DNA from: Pseudobdellovibrionaceae bacterium | GTDB taxonomy: Bacteria > Bdellovibrionota > Bdellovibrionia > Bdellovibrionales > UBA1609 | Reading direction: 5' to 3' | NCBI GenBank assembly: GCA_023898385.1 | Contig: CP060220.1 | Span: 2,655,683 to 2,719,682, forward strand | Length of the DNA stretch: 64,000 nt | Shown: positions 13,445 through 44,942 of the stretch, piece after piece | How the letters are laid out: every line of letters begins with the position of its first letter | Numbering within the stretch: position 1 is the first letter of the stretch | The notes under the pieces: generated by a model | Seen by the model: only the letters and a program-made list of their open reading frames with translations | What the model was told of the DNA's origin: nothing | The model's database searches: none | Program-made: the position numbers and the translations under genes

Positions 13445-13627
13445 CCCGCCTTCGAGAGTGAACAGAGGCCAGCGGGGAAAGTGTGGGGCGCCAGCACCTC
13501 ACGATGTGCATGGCGTATCCGGGTTGCGGCACGCAAGCGACGCAATCCGAAGACGACATGCGGCCACTCGTGCCGTGCTGGCGCCCCACACTTTCCCCGC
13601 TGGCCTCTGTTCACTCTCGAAGGCGGG
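13445..13627. repeat. Foldback element A1: 53-bp perfect inverted arms plus 77-nt imperfect-hairpin core
   Basis: 13445-13497 is the exact reverse complement of 13575-13627. Core 13506-13565 matches 58/60 to the reverse complement of 22099-22158. Confidence 0.9.
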
Positions 13628-21428: not shown

Positions 21429-21620
21429 TTATTCGCCGAGTGAGACGCCGCCGATACCACCACTGAGTTCATCCACCTTCCCTTTGATGACGGTTTTAAG
21501 TTGCGGACCAAAAAAGATAACGATGCCAACAACTACAACTAAAAGCAGGATGTATTCCACCGCACCTTGGCCGGACTCATCATTCCAAAGTTGTTTTGCA
21601 AATTTTTTGAGATTCTTCAT
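21429..21620 (-). CDS. flp: Flp family type IVb pilin
   Basis: 63 aa. MKNLKKFAKQLWNDESGQG|AVEYILLLVVVVGIVIFFG is the canonical Flp motif. AAGGGGA RBS. Confidence 0.9.
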   Translation of the reverse strand: MKNLKKFAKQLWNDESGQGAVEYILLLVVVVGIVIFFGPQLKTVIKGKVDELSGGIGGVSLGE

Positions 21621-22034: not shown

Positions 22035-22221
22035 CACAGACGAAGGCACAGAGACCAAGACGATTGGATGCGGATGCCTGCGTCTGCCTGGCGCTTTCGG
22101 CCGCATGTCGTCTTCGGATTGCGTCACTGGCGTGCCGCAACCCGGATACGCCATGCACGACGCGAACGGCAGACGCAGGCATCCGCATCCAATCGTCTTG
22201 GTCTCTGTGCCTTCGTCTGTG
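22035..22221. repeat. Foldback element A2: 54-bp perfect inverted arms plus 79-nt core (inverted relative to A1)
   Basis: 22035-22088 is the exact reverse complement of 22168-22221. Core 22099-22158 matches the reverse complement of 13506-13565 at 58/60. Arms are unrelated to the A1 arms. Confidence 0.9.
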
Positions 22222-38105: not shown

Positions 38106-38720
38106 TTGATTAGGCGAGTTGTAGTTTCGATATCTATATGTATGGCGGTTTTTTCTTTAGCCAATGGGGCTAATGCGGCCATTTTAGTGGAAGAGGCGGG
38201 GCAATCGCTTTATTCAGCATCCGAAACAAAAATTTCTTCGGATGTCCTCGACTTTAGGTCCCATCGGCGGGTGGGATTTGGTTGGGCCGCAGCAGGAGCA
38301 CTGGGGCTTTTGGGTTTGCAGTTGGAGTTGAACTTCACTCCAGATGTGAGTGTTGTTGGTGGATTCGGAATATCCCGCGGCTTTCAGGCGTTCTCATTTC
38401 AGGTAAAAAGAGTGTTAGCTGGAAAATGGTTTGCTCCTTATGTCGCTGGCGGATTTGCCCGCTGGTACAATGTGGGACACAACGGAGCCATGGTAGATTC
38501 TAGCCCCGACTTTCTTAGCCAAAGATTTTTATCTGAGACCGAGCGTCAGACGGGTCAGTTTGGTGAAAACATGATATTCCCATCGGCGGGTATTCAATAT
38601 CTACAATTATCTGGTGATTGGGCCGGAGCTTCTTTGTATGCCGAGGTGATGATGATGATTGATATGGATGACTTTGTCGCCGCTCCCACAGCCGGTTTGG
38701 GAATGATGTACTACTTTTAA
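38106..38720 (+). CDS. Small outer-membrane beta-barrel protein (hypothetical)
   Basis: Signal peptide ending ANA. Gly/aromatic-rich alternating strands. C-terminal ..GLGMMYYF OMP signature. Confidence 0.55.
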   Translation: MIRRVVVSISICMAVFSLANGANAAILVEEAGQSLYSASETKISSDVLDFRSHRRVGFGWAAAGALGLLGLQLELNFTPDVSVVGGFGISRGFQAFSFQVKRVLAGKWFAPYVAGGFARWYNVGHNGAMVDSSPDFLSQRFLSETERQTGQFGENMIFPSAGIQYLQLSGDWAGASLYAEVMMMIDMDDFVAAPTAGLGMMYYF

Positions 38721-38748
38721 CTGGATCGTATTCGTCGCAGTTTTGGGT

Positions 38749-38783
38749 AAAAAAAAACCCTCGGCAAAGCCGAGGGTTTTTTT
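38749..38783. terminator. Bidirectional rho-independent terminator
   Basis: aaaaaaaaaCCCTCGGCaaaGCCGAGGGttttttt lies between convergent genes. Confidence 0.85.
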
Positions 38784-38801
38784 GTCTTAAGTAGTAATAA
38801 A

Positions 38802-39011
38802 TTACTTCTTACGACGAGCAGTTTTCTTAGCTGCTTTCTTGCGAGTGGCTTTTTTAGCAGCCTTCTTGCGAGTAGCTTTTTTAGCTGTTTTCTTTGCAGC
38901 TTTTTTGCGAGTAGCTTTTTTAGCTGTTTTCTTAGCTGCTTTTTTACGAGTAGCTTTCTTTGCAGTTGTAGTTGTCTTCTTAGCGGCTTTTTTTCTTTTC
39001 TTCGCTGCCAT
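38802..39011 (-). CDS. Histone H1-like lysine/alanine-rich DNA-binding protein (70 aa)
   Basis: ATG 39011 with an AGGAGG RBS. MAAKKRKKAAKKTTTTAKKATRKKAAKKTAKKATRKK.. is built from 39-bp (13-aa) tandem units. Confidence 0.75.
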   Translation of the reverse strand: MAAKKRKKAAKKTTTTAKKATRKKAAKKTAKKATRKKAAKKTAKKATRKKAAKKATRKKAAKKTARRKK

Positions 39012-39151
39012 GTATATCCTCCTGGGATGTGTTCTTTGTTGTTTACCAAAGTTGGTTACATCTAAAAGTGTACCCACGTGACTCTATTCGTCAATCAAAA
39101 ATATTTCTTTAGCTTTTTTTTTGCATGAAGGGTGTTTTGTGGAGGTGAACA

Positions 39152-40744: not shown

Positions 40745-41818
40745 ATGAGAACGTCAATGGTTCCAGAGAAAATGCCTTATCAACTTGAAAAATGGCTCGG
40801 ACAGGGCACGAGCGCTACTGTGTTTCTAGCTAGCCGAGTGGACGAGGTGTCCGGAGCGCGACAGCAGGTGGCCATCAAGTTTCTTAATTCCGAGAAGTTG
40901 GTCGAGGCATGGAGACAAGAGCTTCAAAGTTTGCAACAAGTGGATTCCCCCTATTGCCTCCGCTTGTTGGGATTTGAGCGCTTTTCCGGCAAGCCAGCAA
41001 TCATCTTGGAATATGTAGAGGGATTAAGTCTTCGGCAATTGGCAGAATGGGGGCCCCTATCTGAGGATCTAATGGTAGAAATCATCGCTCAAGCTCAACA
41101 GGGGCTTAAAGACTTAAATCAAAGAGGACTTAATCACGGAGATTTGAGCCCCGCTAATATGATGATAAATACATCGGGGCAGGTGAAACTTTTAGATTTT
41201 GGATTGGCAAACAGTTCACCCCAAGGACGACAATTTACTCCACCCTTCGCGGCCCCTGAAGTTTTATATGGCGAACCTCACAACTTGTATGCCGACTATT
41301 TCAGCCTGGGCCTGGTTATGTCGTTTCTGGGTTTTTCTCAAAAAAAACTTACAGGATTGTTACACCCCGAGCCTCATCGGCGCACGGGTTTAGCCAGCGA
41401 ATCTTGTCAGGAACTGCGTCAGGTCTTGGGAGAACTAGTAAAAAGTAGAATGCAGGAACTTGCAGACAGAGAAGCCAAAACCAAGGTCCAAGAACAGCAA
41501 AGATCTCATCCTTATTACGCCTTTGGAGTGCTTACATCTATTATATATATTTTTTTAGTTATGGTGCCGGGATCGCAGTCCTGGTCCATGGTCGTGCCTG
41601 GCGAAGGCCAGGCACGGCTTTCCGTATATACAAATGAATGGACCGAAGTCTATTTAGATGGCCAGCGTCTTGGTTACTCACCTATTAAAAACCTTGCCAT
41701 CAAACCGGGTGCCCATCGTCTGAATTGGAATCGGAAAAATAACTCTGGCGAGTCTACGCTGACCATTTTGCCCGAAGAGAGTCTAGTTCTGGGCGATCAA
41801 GATTTTGTTGGTTTCTAG
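40745..41818 (+). CDS. Ser/Thr protein kinase with TM helix and PEGA-like C-terminal domain
   Basis: Gly-loop LGQGTSATVF, VAIKF, catalytic loop HGDLSPANMMI (atypical vs HRDLKPxN), DFG, APE. Then a TM helix (YAFGVLTSIIYIFLVMV) and a PEGA-like segment (RLSVYTNEWTEVYLDGQRLGYSP). Confidence 0.8.
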   Translation: MRTSMVPEKMPYQLEKWLGQGTSATVFLASRVDEVSGARQQVAIKFLNSEKLVEAWRQELQSLQQVDSPYCLRLLGFERFSGKPAIILEYVEGLSLRQLAEWGPLSEDLMVEIIAQAQQGLKDLNQRGLNHGDLSPANMMINTSGQVKLLDFGLANSSPQGRQFTPPFAAPEVLYGEPHNLYADYFSLGLVMSFLGFSQKKLTGLLHPEPHRRTGLASESCQELRQVLGELVKSRMQELADREAKTKVQEQQRSHPYYAFGVLTSIIYIFLVMVPGSQSWSMVVPGEGQARLSVYTNEWTEVYLDGQRLGYSPIKNLAIKPGAHRLNWNRKNNSGESTLTILPEESLVLGDQDFVGF

Positions 41819-41883
41819 AATTATGTATTTAATCGAGGCGAAGTTTCACCTCTTTGACTAAGTCCTGGGGTCCACCTATTGTG

Positions 41884-42045
41884 AAGGCACGCTTCGAAGA
41901 AGCCAACCGCCGCGGGAGCCCACCTGCAAAAAGGCTCAGACATTCGTTCGGCAGCAGTGCTCGCTTTTAGCGAGCACTGCACCGATCCGAACTCGCTTTT
42001 TGCAGATGGGCTCCCGCGGCGGTTGGCTTCTTCGAAGCGTGCCTT
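41884..42045. repeat. Foldback element B1: 50-nt arms (49/50 complementary) plus nested-hairpin core
   Basis: 41884-41933 pairs with 41996-42045 with one mismatch. Segment 41928-42009 is 82/82 identical to 42920-43001. The inner hairpin is gcagtgctcgc-tttta-gcgagcactgc. Confidence 0.9.
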
Positions 42046-42057
42046 TAGATTTTACTT

Positions 42058-42888
42058 TTGGAGTTGTTCTTGGATATTTTTCAGTCGATTTTTTTAGGGA
42101 TCGTTCAGGGTCTTACTGAGTTTTTGCCCATTTCTAGTTCTGGGCACTTGGTAATTTTTCAAGAATTGCTAGGCGTGGAGCAGCACAGTATTGCTTTTGA
42201 TGTAGCGGCTCATTTGGGGACCGTCTTGACGGTCATCACGCTCTATTTTGCAACTGTGCGCCAGATGCTTTGGGAGGTGATCACTTATCCTTCTCATCGA
42301 CGGTTCACTCCTGGCATCAAGCTGATGTTATTGATCGTCGTGGGGAGTGTTCCAACAGCCATCATTGGTCTGAGTCTTAAGGATATGTTTGAGTCGTTGT
42401 TTTCTAATTTGTTGGCTGTGGGTATTTTTTTGACAATCACGGGTTTGATTTTGTTTTTAACTCGAAACAAGGCTCGCATTTCACGGCATATTGATGTGCA
42501 TAGCCTCGAAGACGTAAAGGCCATGCACTACTGGCAGGCAGCACTTATTGGTGTGGCGCAAGGTATGGCTATCGCGCCTGGAATTAGTCGTTCGGGATCG
42601 ACCATAGCAGCGGGCTTGGCACTGGGAATCGATCGAAAAACCACGGCGCTTTTTAGTTTTATGTTGTCATTGCCGGCAATTATGGGCGCTGGATTATTGC
42701 AGTTGCGTCATATTACCAGTTGGGATCACCAAGTGTTGTTGAGCTTAGGTGTGGGCTTTTTGACGGCCTATTTATCGGGTTTGATGGGCTTATGGGGAAT
42801 TTTGTATTTTGTAAAAAAAGGCCGACTTGAATATTTTAGTTATTATCTTTGGGTTGTTGGGCCGGCAGTTATATTCTGGAGCCTATGA
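42058..42888 (+). CDS. uppP: Undecaprenyl-diphosphate phosphatase
   Basis: IVQGLTEFLPISSSGHLVI.., ..GISRSGSTI.. are canonical UppP/BacA motifs. TTG start with no in-frame ATG nearby and no obvious SD. Confidence 0.9.
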   Translation: MELFLDIFQSIFLGIVQGLTEFLPISSSGHLVIFQELLGVEQHSIAFDVAAHLGTVLTVITLYFATVRQMLWEVITYPSHRRFTPGIKLMLLIVVGSVPTAIIGLSLKDMFESLFSNLLAVGIFLTITGLILFLTRNKARISRHIDVHSLEDVKAMHYWQAALIGVAQGMAIAPGISRSGSTIAAGLALGIDRKTTALFSFMLSLPAIMGAGLLQLRHITSWDHQVLLSLGVGFLTAYLSGLMGLWGILYFVKKGRLEYFSYYLWVVGPAVIFWSL

Positions 42889-42889
42889 G

Positions 42890-43023
42890 CCACCAGCCGC
42901 CGCGCCGGAACCCATCTGAAAAAAGGCTCAGACATTCGTTCGGCAGCAGTGCTCGCTTTTAGCGAGCACTGCACCGATCCGAACTCGCTTTTTGCAGATG
43001 GATTCTGGCGCGGCGGCTGGCGG
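42890..43023. repeat. Foldback element B2: 36-nt arms (32/36 complementary) plus the same core as B1, same orientation
   Basis: 42890-42925 pairs with 42988-43023. The core is identical to B1. Starts 1 nt after the uppP stop codon. Confidence 0.9.
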
Positions 43024-43076
43024 ATCATGGGCATCCAAAGGGAATCCGATACCTTTTGGATGGGGAGGGGAAAGAT

Positions 43077-43286
43077 ATGGAAACTACAAAATCATGGAAC
43101 TTGCAAAAAGAACAATTGGAAGTTCTCGAACAACTTGTTGAAGAGCTCATGAAAGACGAGCCCTGTGAGGATACGGTCAAGTCGTATATGGGTCAGACAG
43201 GGATTCCCTATACATCTGATCCCATTGAGCGTATTAACGTTGTGTTGAGAGCCTTGAATTTTTCAGAACCAGAGAGAGAAGTTTAG
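43077..43286 (+). CDS. Small acidic hypothetical protein (69 aa)
   Basis: ATG 43077 preceded by GGAGGGG. METTKSWNLQKEQLEVLEQLVEELMKDEP.. Stop lies 2 nt before the next gene. Confidence 0.45.
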   Translation: METTKSWNLQKEQLEVLEQLVEELMKDEPCEDTVKSYMGQTGIPYTSDPIERINVVLRALNFSEPEREV

Positions 43287-43288
43287 TT

Positions 43289-44446
43289 ATGACTGATAGG
43301 GACAATCAAAGTTTAGGATTTGAGACCCGGGCCATTCATGCCGGTCAAAAACCAGATCCCACAACCGGCGCCATTATGACTCCCATTTATTTATCAAGCA
43401 CATTTGTGCAGGAGTCACCCGGCCATCATACAGGATTTGAATACAGCCGCACCGGAAATCCCACTCGCACCGCTTATGAAGCATGTATTGCAAGCCTTGA
43501 AGGTGGACGATTTGGGTTTGCATTCGCTTCAGGTTGTGCCGCTTCAACAACAGTGATGCATATTCTTAAGGCCGGCGACCACGTGGTGGCCTGTGACGAC
43601 ATATATGGGGGAAGCTTTCGGCTTTTTGATAAAATCATTCGAAACAACGGCATCGATTTTAGTTTTGTGGACCTCACCGATGTAAACCAATTTGCCGCAG
43701 CCATTAAGCCTGAGACTCGTCTGGTTTGGATCGAGTCGCCGACAAATCCCATGTTAAAACTCATGGACATCAAAAAATTGTCGGAGATGGCGCACAAACA
43801 CAATATTTTGGTGGCTGTTGATAATACATTTATGAGCCCCTATTTTCAAAAACCATTGAGCCTTGGGGCCGATATAGTGGTTCACTCGGCGACAAAGTTT
43901 ATTAATGGACACAGCGATATAGTAGGCGGCGTGATTGTGACCGATCGTGATGATCTGGCCGAGAAAATCGCCTTTTTGAGTAATTCTATGGGACCGGTAG
44001 CGGCGACATTTGATTCTTATATGTGTTTGCGAAGTTTGAAAACTTTGGCTGTGCGGATGCGAGCGCATCAAGAAAATGCCATAGCCATAGCCCAATTTTT
44101 AGAGGGCCATCCCAAAATAGAAAAAGTCATTTACCCAGGACTGGCCAGTCATCCCCAACATGGTTTAGCTAAAGAGCAGATGTCAGGTTATGGGGGCATG
44201 ATCAGTGCCTATTTAAAGGGAGGATTGTCAGAGGCACGAGCCTTTTTGGAAAAGGTAAAAATCTTCAGCTTGGCGGAGAGTTTAGGCGGAGTGGAGTCCC
44301 TTGTGGAGCACCCTGCGATTATGACCCACGCCAGTGTGCCCGCAGAAACTCGACGGGCCCTGGGCATTGCCGACAACTTTGTGCGATTGAGTGTGGGTAT
44401 TGAGACCCAGGATGACCTGATAAAGGATCTTGAACAGGCACTATGA
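43289..44446 (+). CDS. Cystathionine gamma-synthase/gamma-lyase family PLP enzyme
   Basis: Cys/Met-metabolism PLP family: ..YSRTGNPT.., ..VVHSATKFINGHSD.. (PLP lysine), 385 aa. Confidence 0.9.
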   Translation: MTDRDNQSLGFETRAIHAGQKPDPTTGAIMTPIYLSSTFVQESPGHHTGFEYSRTGNPTRTAYEACIASLEGGRFGFAFASGCAASTTVMHILKAGDHVVACDDIYGGSFRLFDKIIRNNGIDFSFVDLTDVNQFAAAIKPETRLVWIESPTNPMLKLMDIKKLSEMAHKHNILVAVDNTFMSPYFQKPLSLGADIVVHSATKFINGHSDIVGGVIVTDRDDLAEKIAFLSNSMGPVAATFDSYMCLRSLKTLAVRMRAHQENAIAIAQFLEGHPKIEKVIYPGLASHPQHGLAKEQMSGYGGMISAYLKGGLSEARAFLEKVKIFSLAESLGGVESLVEHPAIMTHASVPAETRRALGIADNFVRLSVGIETQDDLIKDLEQAL

Positions 44447-44520: not shown

Positions 44521-44596
<76 letters not shown>

Positions 44597-44601
44597 AAAA
44601 T

Positions 44602-44630
44602 AAAAAAGCCCGAGTGGGCTTTTTTTATTT
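44602..44630 (+). terminator. Rho-independent terminator after tRNA-Phe
   Basis: aaaaaAGCCCgagtGGGCTttttttattttt. Confidence 0.75.
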
Positions 44631-44749
44631 TTGATGGTTTGGCCGAAGCCAAACCATGATGGTCTCCGACCTTCTCCTCGCTTTGCTCGTCGTGCGGTCT
44701 CGACCACAAGCTGCATCAAAATGCTTTGCATTTTGCCGCAGTCTTGAAA

Positions 44750-44772
44750 GGTTCAATTCCGTCCCGAGCCAC
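44750..44772 (+). repeat. Direct repeat of the tRNA-Phe 3' end (att-like scar)
   Basis: ggttcaattccgtcccgagccac is identical (23/23) to 44572-44594 inside the tRNA. It is followed at 44814-44846 by a second, similar terminator hairpin (aaaaAGCCCtttGGGCTttttttg). Confidence 0.85.
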
Positions 44773-44942
44773 TCGTGATCTTTATACAGTACATTTTTTT
44801 GTTTGGGTCACTCAAAAAGCCCTTTGGGCTTTTTTTGTTTTTTTGGATTGAGTTTATTCCCTTTCATTTAACTTATGCCACTAGTGCGATGACGACCCCG
44901 GGGTTGAATTCTTGCGCAAAGTGTCGTAGTTGTTTCAGCCTT

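Follow-up and report, generated by a model that had tools for sequence, protein, structure and literature searches.

Introduction

REP and REPIN sequences (RAYT; IS200/IS605-like Y1) are non-coding, intergenic and GC-rich against their surroundings; they form imperfect hairpins of tens to about 100 nucleotides (nt), leave no direct target duplication, are found within operons and are thought to move as folded single-stranded DNA (ssDNA). Miniature inverted-repeat transposable elements (MITEs) and other palindromic repeats (Correia/NEMIS, ERIC, Rickettsia RPE and bcr1) are self-complementary non-autonomous insertions of 100-190 bp that sit in short spacers and gene ends, can supply stops or extend open reading frames (ORFs), and are co-transcribed. 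Integron attC sites are structure-recognized imperfect palindromes that flank single genes and vary between copies, and for attC and ssoA sites structure counts more than sequence. It is also established that template switching homogenizes and extends the arms of inverted repeats (PMC7202029, PMC3820800, PMC8604942, PMC13100816). Here we describe a locus that resembles these repeats and sites in the traits just listed: B1, a foldback at positions 41884-42045 of a 64,000-nt stretch of contig CP060220.1 from a Pseudobdellovibrionaceae bacterium (hereafter, the window), which precedes uppP, the gene of a BacA family undecaprenyl-diphosphatase.

B1 has a related copy, B2, on the far side of uppP, and two foldbacks of an unrelated family, A1 and A2, lie elsewhere in the window. 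These elements are undescribed and are best read as a REPIN/MITE-like variant of small palindromic non-autonomous elements, in which the conserved part is the apex and the outer arms belong to the locus.

Results

Structure of the B1 foldback

B1 (+ strand) is a 162-nt inverted repeat with 60% GC, against 46% in its flanks. Its two 50-nt arms (41884-41933 and 41996-42045) enclose a 62-nt spacer, and our inverted-repeat scan bore out the pairing at 49 of 50 positions (98%) that an initial annotation of the window had described from the letters alone. The GTTCGG and CCGAAC segments (41948-41953 and 41987-41992) close an asymmetric internal loop of 2 nt versus 6 nt, again as annotated, and a second asymmetric loop of 12 nt versus 3 nt lies between this helix and the arms. 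The apex (41954-41980, + strand) is a perfect hairpin, GCAGTGCTCGCT-TTT-AGCGAGCACTGC, whose 12 bp exceed by one base pair the version of 11 bp with a 5-nt loop reported earlier. The small palindrome noticed within the outer arm was found at 41891-41903 (GCTTCGAAGAAGC). Predicted folds of B1 lie far below shuffled controls, both as RNA (minimum free energy (MFE) -138.2 kcal/mol, z = -17.9, with 0 of 200 shuffles equally stable) and as DNA (-90.5 kcal/mol, z = -18.8).

Alignment with B2 and an nhmmer profile match delimit an element proper within B1 (41903-42027, + strand), which consists of inner arms of about 25-33 nt and the central module. Outside it lie locus-specific outer arms on the + strand. 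The left one (41884-41902, 19 nt, 53% GC, which is ordinary for this genome) pairs perfectly with 42027-42045; the right one (42027-42045) was assigned from this inverted repeat and from the comparison of the B1 and B2 arms. A sigma-70-like promoter match (TTGACT-17-TATTGT, 9/12) at 41854-41882 ends 2 nt before B1. Such matches are not above chance (2 sites found against 2.8 expected); if the promoter is real, B1 would form the 5' end of a uppP transcript.

B1 and B2 share their core, and the outer arm of B2 is host sequence

B2 (42877-43036, + strand) has arms of about 87% complementarity and an MFE of -114.9 kcal/mol (z = -14.9). Its element proper, defined by alignment with B1 and by nhmmer, spans 42893-43021 (+ strand) and starts 3-4 nt past the uppP stop codon. 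The two copies have 108 nt in common at 93% identity. Their homologous part covers about 125 nt in all, of which 82 nt, comprising the core and the innermost arm bases (41928-42009 in B1, + strand), are identical. Against 0 differences in this core, the inner arms carry 7 substitutions and one indel in about 63 nt. In alignments compared with shuffled controls, the inner 33 nt or so of the arms are clearly homologous and the outermost 16-19 nt show no detectable homology (p = 0.92).

The differences between the B arms are coordinated. Eight base pairs are changed on both sides, together with a mirrored 2-nt indel; within the homologous inner arms, both partners differ in two of the pairs (A:U to G:C and G:C to A:U), while the mirrored indel reads CC on the left and GG on the right. 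The inner-arm consensus forms 100% standard pairs; with the 3' partners displaced by 1-3 columns, the share drops to 32-41%. These compensatory pairs and the complete pairing indicate that the arms are actively kept complementary, and the mirrored indel is most simply explained if one arm was copied from the other. Family B thus shows both marks of template switching, namely mirrored complementary changes and an arm identity that extends into the flank.

The flank in question is the end of uppP. The left outer arm of B2 (42877-42892, + strand) consists of the native uppP 3' end (TGG AGC CTA TGA, encoding W, S, L and stop) followed by GCCA. UppP homologues end with W-(S/T/G)-(L/M/I) plus 0-4 residues, and several stop right after the motif. 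Since the W-S-L end is conserved among them, the left outer arm is pre-existing host coding sequence. The right outer arm (43021-43036, + strand) is the inverted complement of the same uppP end (13/16 matches with one gap; P = 2.5e-4 under an anchored null of 20,000 genomic positions). A native gene end with its inverted complement on the other side of B2 means that the outer arm was made from the host flank. The outer arm of B2 did not arrive with the element and is, at least at B2, an inverted duplication of the flank. The initial annotation had treated an unrelated outer arm as part of the blueprint; the arm is indeed unrelated and does pair, but at B2 it is uppP sequence with its inverted copy. 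The GC content of the B outer arms (53-56%) is ordinary for the genome. Copying of outer arms from elsewhere in the window was rejected.

Scans for the B apex pattern returned just 8 chance palindromes from the GTDB species representatives, all in unrelated high-GC genomes, and the same uppP locus only from a metagenome collection. Neither scan returned all contigs known to carry the element, so that the absence of B elsewhere is suggestive and not proven. An nhmmer search of 278 kb of sequence found no extra degenerate copies. In the apex scans, family B was thus confined to the two sites flanking uppP, which comes near to the lack of further copies that the initial annotation had set against its own claim.

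Family A repeats the layout in unrelated sequence

A whole-window scan identified four foldbacks of this size (A1, A2, B1 and B2) and no others. They have 60-66% GC against 41-46% in their flanks, in a genome of 46% GC, and almost no other stretch of equal length in the 64 kb is as GC-rich. The composition of the elements is foreign to the genome, and the central module of every foldback sits exactly at the center of symmetry.

A1 (13445-13627, - strand; 183 nt) lies between tadB and a gene with RHS repeats and has 60-nt arms of 97% complementarity. A2 (22035-22221, + strand; 187 nt), inverted relative to A1, lies upstream of a Flp/TadE-like ORF (ORF 22255), and its arms pair perfectly (54/54). 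The two share a 60-nt core (13506-13565 on the - strand in A1; 22099-22158 in A2) with 96.7% identity in opposite orientations. Their arms show no detectable homology over the full 53-54 nt (p = 0.54 against shuffled controls), and the boundary between core and arm is sharp. The arms as diverged homologues were rejected, there being no alignment signal. Between the A arms, 17 pairs are changed on both sides. As a separate observation, the A2 arm (22035-22088) is made of short direct repeats (CACAGA x2, AGACGA x2 and GGATGC x2); its ends are mutually complementary (CAGACG and CGTCTG), and CACAGAC recurs 11 nt upstream in the left flank. Iterative slippage or template switching may have left these traces.

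A third copy, A3, was found by a HMMER search with a spurious 98-aa ORF that runs across A1. The match was P0121, a spurious 75-aa ORF called by the gene caller across A3, and the matching segment is the translated A core. A3 (contig L036, 655-850) occupies a divergent intergenic region upstream of thrS (L036:1019-2986). The thrS protein encoded on L036 is identical to one encoded on a contig of 3,330,855 bp whose UppP is identical to that of the window, which indicates that A3 belongs to the same genome. In the three-way alignment the core (about L036:712-771) is kept and the apical loop alone varies among the copies (TTGC, TGGC or TTTC); A3 and A1 have about 10 further nt in common on each side. 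The arms of A3 are 28 nt long, 71% complementary and interrupted by indels (fold, -77 kcal/mol). The GC-rich stretch at A3 spans about 200 nt, which fits a full-size foldback whose arms have decayed. Family A therefore shows a gradient resembling that of B, from a conserved core through semi-conserved near-core sequence to locus-specific arms of varying quality. The copy numbers (two for B and three for A) are lower bounds.

Several claims of the initial annotation can be judged on this basis. Families A and B are unrelated in sequence and yet have the same layout of a conserved imperfect apical module and differing arms that pair, as it had stated. Its outer arms that are unrelated between copies but still pair were recovered in the outermost B segments and in the A arms. 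The semi-conserved inner arms hold for B1 versus B2 and A1 versus A3, not for A1 versus A2. The common mechanism proposed there survives in part: the same layout in both families and the active maintenance of pairing make a shared generating process likely, but the outer arm of B2 speaks for a general process of replication, namely fold-back template switching at a strong hairpin, instead of a dedicated design.

The foldbacks are authentic. Contigs from at least 8 other samples (JGI, NCBI GCA_020434665.1, ENA and Logan) are 99.8-100% identical to the window and cover B2, the core and right arm of B1, and the whole of A1 (fully contained in contig L025). Recurrence of the same sequences in independent assemblies shows that no assembly artefact is involved. 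Logan contigs break off 29-30 nt into the arms, as a de Bruijn graph would at a true palindrome with k of about 31 (an assumed value). Neither empty sites nor strain polymorphism was found among these near-clonal assemblies. One JGI contig (L017) is without one codon of uppP (42538-42540, in the context GCAGGCAGC), outside the foldbacks; this is the sole indel between assemblies across the uppP locus.

B1 and B2 are lineage-specific insertions in a conserved gene row

The window is ordinary core chromosome, with genes for RmuC, GroEL, the tad/cpa pilus operon, NadE, sucCD, mdh and mla, and also a Ser/Thr kinase, uppP, a Cys/Met PLP enzyme, tRNA-Phe, dus, motAB, tol and suf. B1 occupies the spacer between the kinase gene (stop codon at 41818) and uppP (42070-42888, + strand; Pfam PF02673, E = 2.8e-72; a product of 272 aa identical to P0001). 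B2 starts at the stop codon of uppP, and about 30 nt separate its end from the Shine-Dalgarno sequence of a 69-aa ORF. The B pair thus brackets uppP alone, in direct orientation, and the inverted A pair brackets the tad/cpa operon (flp at 21429-21620, prepilin peptidase, cpaB, secretin, cpaF and tadB). Recombination between A1 and A2 would invert the tad operon, and recombination between B1 and B2 would delete uppP. Across all five copies, the core has the same orientation relative to the downstream gene (chance about 1/8), and the window copies end 12-30 nt upstream of the next Shine-Dalgarno sequence.

The row kinase-uppP-small ORF-metC-like gene is conserved. Five relatives have UppP proteins 53-62% identical to that of the window and keep the gene order over about 20 kb; one of the five has no kinase gene call at the position flanking uppP. 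Their kinase-to-uppP spacers (an overlap of about 50 nt, 16, 66 and 290 nt) compare with 240 nt in the window, and their spacers from uppP to the next ORF (0-118 nt) with 168 nt. No inverted repeat of at least 20 nt above about 81% complementarity was found in about 80 kb of the relatives' sequence. With the spacers short and free of long hairpins in all five syntenic relatives, B1 and B2 are lineage-specific insertions. The synteny also led us to reject uppP as a mobile cassette.

Two observations were made in the relatives at this locus. In one of them (L033:8917-10001), the gene call of the Ser/Thr kinase is shorter by about 100 aa (264 aa), and the 290-nt gap before uppP comes after it; the gap is without a long inverted repeat and may be the decayed 3' end of the kinase gene. 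Another (L020:5855-5895) has a small native hairpin, CCTGTGCAAAAAT...ATTTTGGTGCAGG, downstream of uppP, which weakly resembles the right half of B (26/39 columns; P≈0.04 in a single one of five comparisons). The resemblance may be due to chance, or else a hint that a native terminator gave rise to the inner arms of B, a derivation we consider weak.

Among the four window copies, we found no consistent direct repeat at the junctions, no shared target motif and no shared tag at the hairpin feet; of the insertion-site features that A and B might have in common, a comparison proposed in the initial annotation, neither a target motif nor shared termini were found. Pfam searches of ORFs of at least 110 aa detected no transposase, integrase, resolvase, HUH/Y1 nuclease, RAYT or reverse transcriptase in the 64-kb window, and hence no candidate for the cognate protein (Y1/HUH, RAYT or resolvase) that had been envisaged.

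Two other features of the window are recorded here. The tRNA-Phe(GAA) gene (44521-44596) is followed by two ordinary terminator-like hairpins, AAAAGCCCGAGTGGGCTTTTTT and AAAAAGCCCTTTGGGCTTTTTTT (44586-44846); these terminators, at 44604-44632 and 44814-44842, are of the type normal in this genome and unlike the foldbacks. Furthermore, tandem imperfect repeats with alternating 27-nt and 12-nt spacing occupy 38817-38965, inside a minus-strand ORF (38717-39049) whose repetitive peptide is rich in Lys, Leu and Gln and has no Pfam match.

Searches of RNA, plasmid and virus collections

At gathering score, Rfam returned tRNA only from the window, and in E-value mode only plant and animal miRNA-hairpin models, far below their gathering scores. 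A known RNA family was rejected in both the gathering-score and the permissive mode; the B core, whose membership in a known non-coding RNA family the initial annotation had named as counting against its reading, has no Rfam family at gathering score. Plasmid, phage and E. coli genomes gave no significant match to cores or arms, only chance alignments of 50 and 31 nt (E≈0.003-0.05). IMG/VR contained no match to exact 22-nt arm probes or to either core probe, and arms as captured viral DNA were rejected on this result.

Discussion

We favor, with middling confidence, the explanation that two families of small palindromic elements, GC-rich and non-autonomous, were inserted in this lineage and that template switching then homogenized and extended their arms. 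The B element is a non-coding insertion of about 125 bp, made up of an imperfect central module of 62 nt between inner inverted arms that are conserved, and both copies entered the short spacers on either side of uppP in the lineage of the window only. Family A is another such element, unrelated in sequence and present in at least 3 copies in the genome. The extremely stable hairpins may make replication switch template repeatedly (quasipalindrome or fold-back template switching), with two effects. A change in one arm would be copied into the other, by which complementarity is kept, and the flank would be copied inverted across the base of the hairpin, by which the palindrome grows outward into locus-specific sequence. 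Such outward growth would explain outer arms that are unrelated between copies and yet pair. We infer that the process is template switching, that a trans-acting enzyme encoded elsewhere confers mobility, and that the elements are largely neutral or selfish; the resulting giant stem-loop in the operon transcript, shortly upstream of the next Shine-Dalgarno sequence, would be an incidental outcome.

A number of points weigh against this explanation. The flank-copy step is shown for one arm pair only, at B2, and the GC content of the A arms (53-54 bp; 59-68%) is too high for copies of the local flank. Described cases of template switching concern short inverted repeats and changes of a few nt, whereas here the process would extend arms by 16-19 bp in B and conceivably by up to 54-60 bp in A, which is unexplained. 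It also leaves the origin of the cores unexplained. There are no direct target duplications, no termini common to the families and no candidate enzyme in the window, so that mobility is deduced from the insertions and the multiple copies only; since B has two known copies 1 kb apart, the pair could reflect one local duplication instead of transposition. Moreover, the cores are far better kept than the arms (0/82 nt versus about 11% in B; an intact core with arms of 71% complementarity in A3). This suggests constraint on the core or its recent arrival, which neutral or selfish decay fails to predict. Finally, the conserved mismatches of the core stay uncorrected although template switching would perfect the arms, and this is unexplained.

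Such differences between core and arm are the starting point of the main rival, which we nevertheless consider unlikely: only the apical module would be mobile (the A core of 60-85 nt or a B unit of about 125 nt) and would insert at the apex of pre-existing hairpins. The arms would then be older, locus-specific targets (terminator-like or older palindromic elements) and not later outgrowths. Certain insertion sequence (IS) elements use REP hairpins as insertion sites, and there are group II introns that insert beside terminator hairpins. The exactly central position of every module fits this view, as do the sharp core/arm boundary in A, the near-identical cores between arms of 71-100% complementarity (young cores in targets of mixed age) and, weakly, the native hairpin downstream of uppP in L020. 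However, core-less long GC-rich palindromes, which would be the empty targets, occur neither in the 64 kb nor in about 80 kb of the relatives' sequence, and no conserved hairpin covers the last uppP codons in the relatives. Perfect palindromes of 54-60 bp would be improbable and unstable as prior targets, and the arms are compositionally foreign too.

A somewhat smaller chance is given to the foldbacks being functional cis-acting RNA structures, such as RNase III sites, 5'/3' stabilizers or terminators/insulators with the core as a protein-binding module, which would set the expression of uppP (B1-B2) and of the tad/cpa operon (A1-A2). The superior conservation of the cores, the compensatory changes that preserve pairing, the common orientation and the close spacing before the Shine-Dalgarno sequences all speak for such a role, and both pairs bracket defined units, namely uppP and the tad operon including flp. 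In contrast, a strand-specific folding advantage was rejected because the families are inconsistent (B folds better antisense and the A copies disagree), no terminator-like site was called and no Rfam family matched. Near-perfect helices of 50-60 bp exceed the need of any known bacterial regulatory stem, and the mirrored indel is simpler at the DNA level. The absence of the structures from the five syntenic relatives indicates that they are not a conserved regulatory feature.

Improbable as we judge it, insertion could instead proceed through a fold-back, self-priming ssDNA intermediate that leaves an inverted target-site duplication each time, where known transposases make a direct one. In this scheme the hairpin of the element would serve as primer for a copy of the target DNA upstream, the arms would be templated anew by every locus, and inheritance and recognition would be confined to the apical module. 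At B2, self-priming by fold-back during insertion would have the same footprint as template switching. If true, the scheme would give bacterial mobile DNA a mode of propagation that has not been described for it, and would explain one architecture in two unrelated families.

It is very improbable that the foldbacks are structure-specific ssDNA sites (attC-like boundaries or similar to single-strand origins) of an integron-like or rolling-circle element. The arrangement of two similar hairpins flanking a single gene in direct orientation would suit such sites, and the B apex contains TAGCGA, which may resemble the ssoA CS-6 motif. Nevertheless, uppP is native and syntenic in all relatives and hence no cassette, core sites of the R''/R' type (RYYYAAC/GTTRRRY) are missing from the hairpin bases, conservation is apical here and basal in attC, and the window has no integrase or Rep gene. 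Chimeric fold-back reads, as an assembly or sequencing artefact, can practically be dismissed: short-read contigs often end inside the elements, but several independent assemblies read through B2 and A1 with identical sequence, and the Logan ends fit a real palindrome under the k noted above.

If template switching around inserted hairpins is the right explanation, the locus is a natural, datable case of palindromes that grow and repair themselves. This process has been studied mostly with reporter constructs in E. coli and yeast, and it becomes readable here since one arm is conserved coding sequence. Two undescribed repeat families are defined whose conserved part is apical and not terminal, and for this reason the standard MITE and REP criteria (conserved ends and direct duplications) would miss both. 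The hairpins break short-read assemblies. In the transcription units of uppP and the tad pilus of this lineage of predatory bacteria, they form stem-loops of -115 to -160 kcal/mol and may affect expression. In conclusion, B1 is out of the ordinary as a repeat but is probably no new biological system, and it is not evidence for a new defense, regulatory or recombination system.

Comparison with described systems

The elements depart from each described system in a definable way. REP sequences are units of 20-40 nt with a GTAG/CGTC foot tag and hundreds of copies; the units here measure 60-125 nt, or 160-187 nt with their arms, and have 2-3 known copies. REPINs have conserved ends and a variable middle, whereas the apex is conserved and the outer arms are locus-specific here, and the RAYT gene of REPIN-RAYT systems is absent from the window. 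MITEs have conserved terminal inverted repeats, direct target-site duplications and usually a parent IS. In the present elements the termini vary between copies, only the inner arms of B are conserved, and the flank of B2 is duplicated inverted, not direct. The attC sites (57-141 bp) are conserved at the base (R'' RYYYAAC/R' GTTRRRY, L''/L' and extrahelical bases) and variable at the apex, the opposite of the arrangement here; the bases of the foldbacks differ, the GTT of B1 (GGTTGGC) not being kept in B2 (GGCTGGC). They are also tied to IntI and mobile cassettes, unlike the native uppP. An intrinsic terminator is a GC-rich stem of about 5-14 bp directly before a U-tract; the stems here reach 50-80 bp, and 0 terminator-like sites were called in 41500-43400. 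In retrons, the msd is a long hairpin immediately upstream of a reverse-transcriptase gene. The genes downstream of the foldbacks are uppP, the 69-aa ORF, the RHS-repeat gene and the Flp/TadE-like ORF, and there is no reverse transcriptase.

Further parallels in architecture and process lie outside these families. For the mitochondrial GC clusters of yeast and sponges, we know of no report of an inverted flank duplication. These clusters are GC-rich hairpin insertions in AT-richer genomes, with several sequence families on one architecture, no encoded enzyme and a lineage-specific distribution, which they share with the foldbacks, and they differ in being organellar, about 30-60 nt long and high in copy number (PMC4478555, PMC2800124). 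Quasipalindrome template switching produces mirrored multi-nt changes in one step and outward extension of the arms (PMC7202029, PMC3820800, PMC8604942, PMC13100816), and these two signatures match the mirrored indel of B and the flank-derived outer arm of B2.

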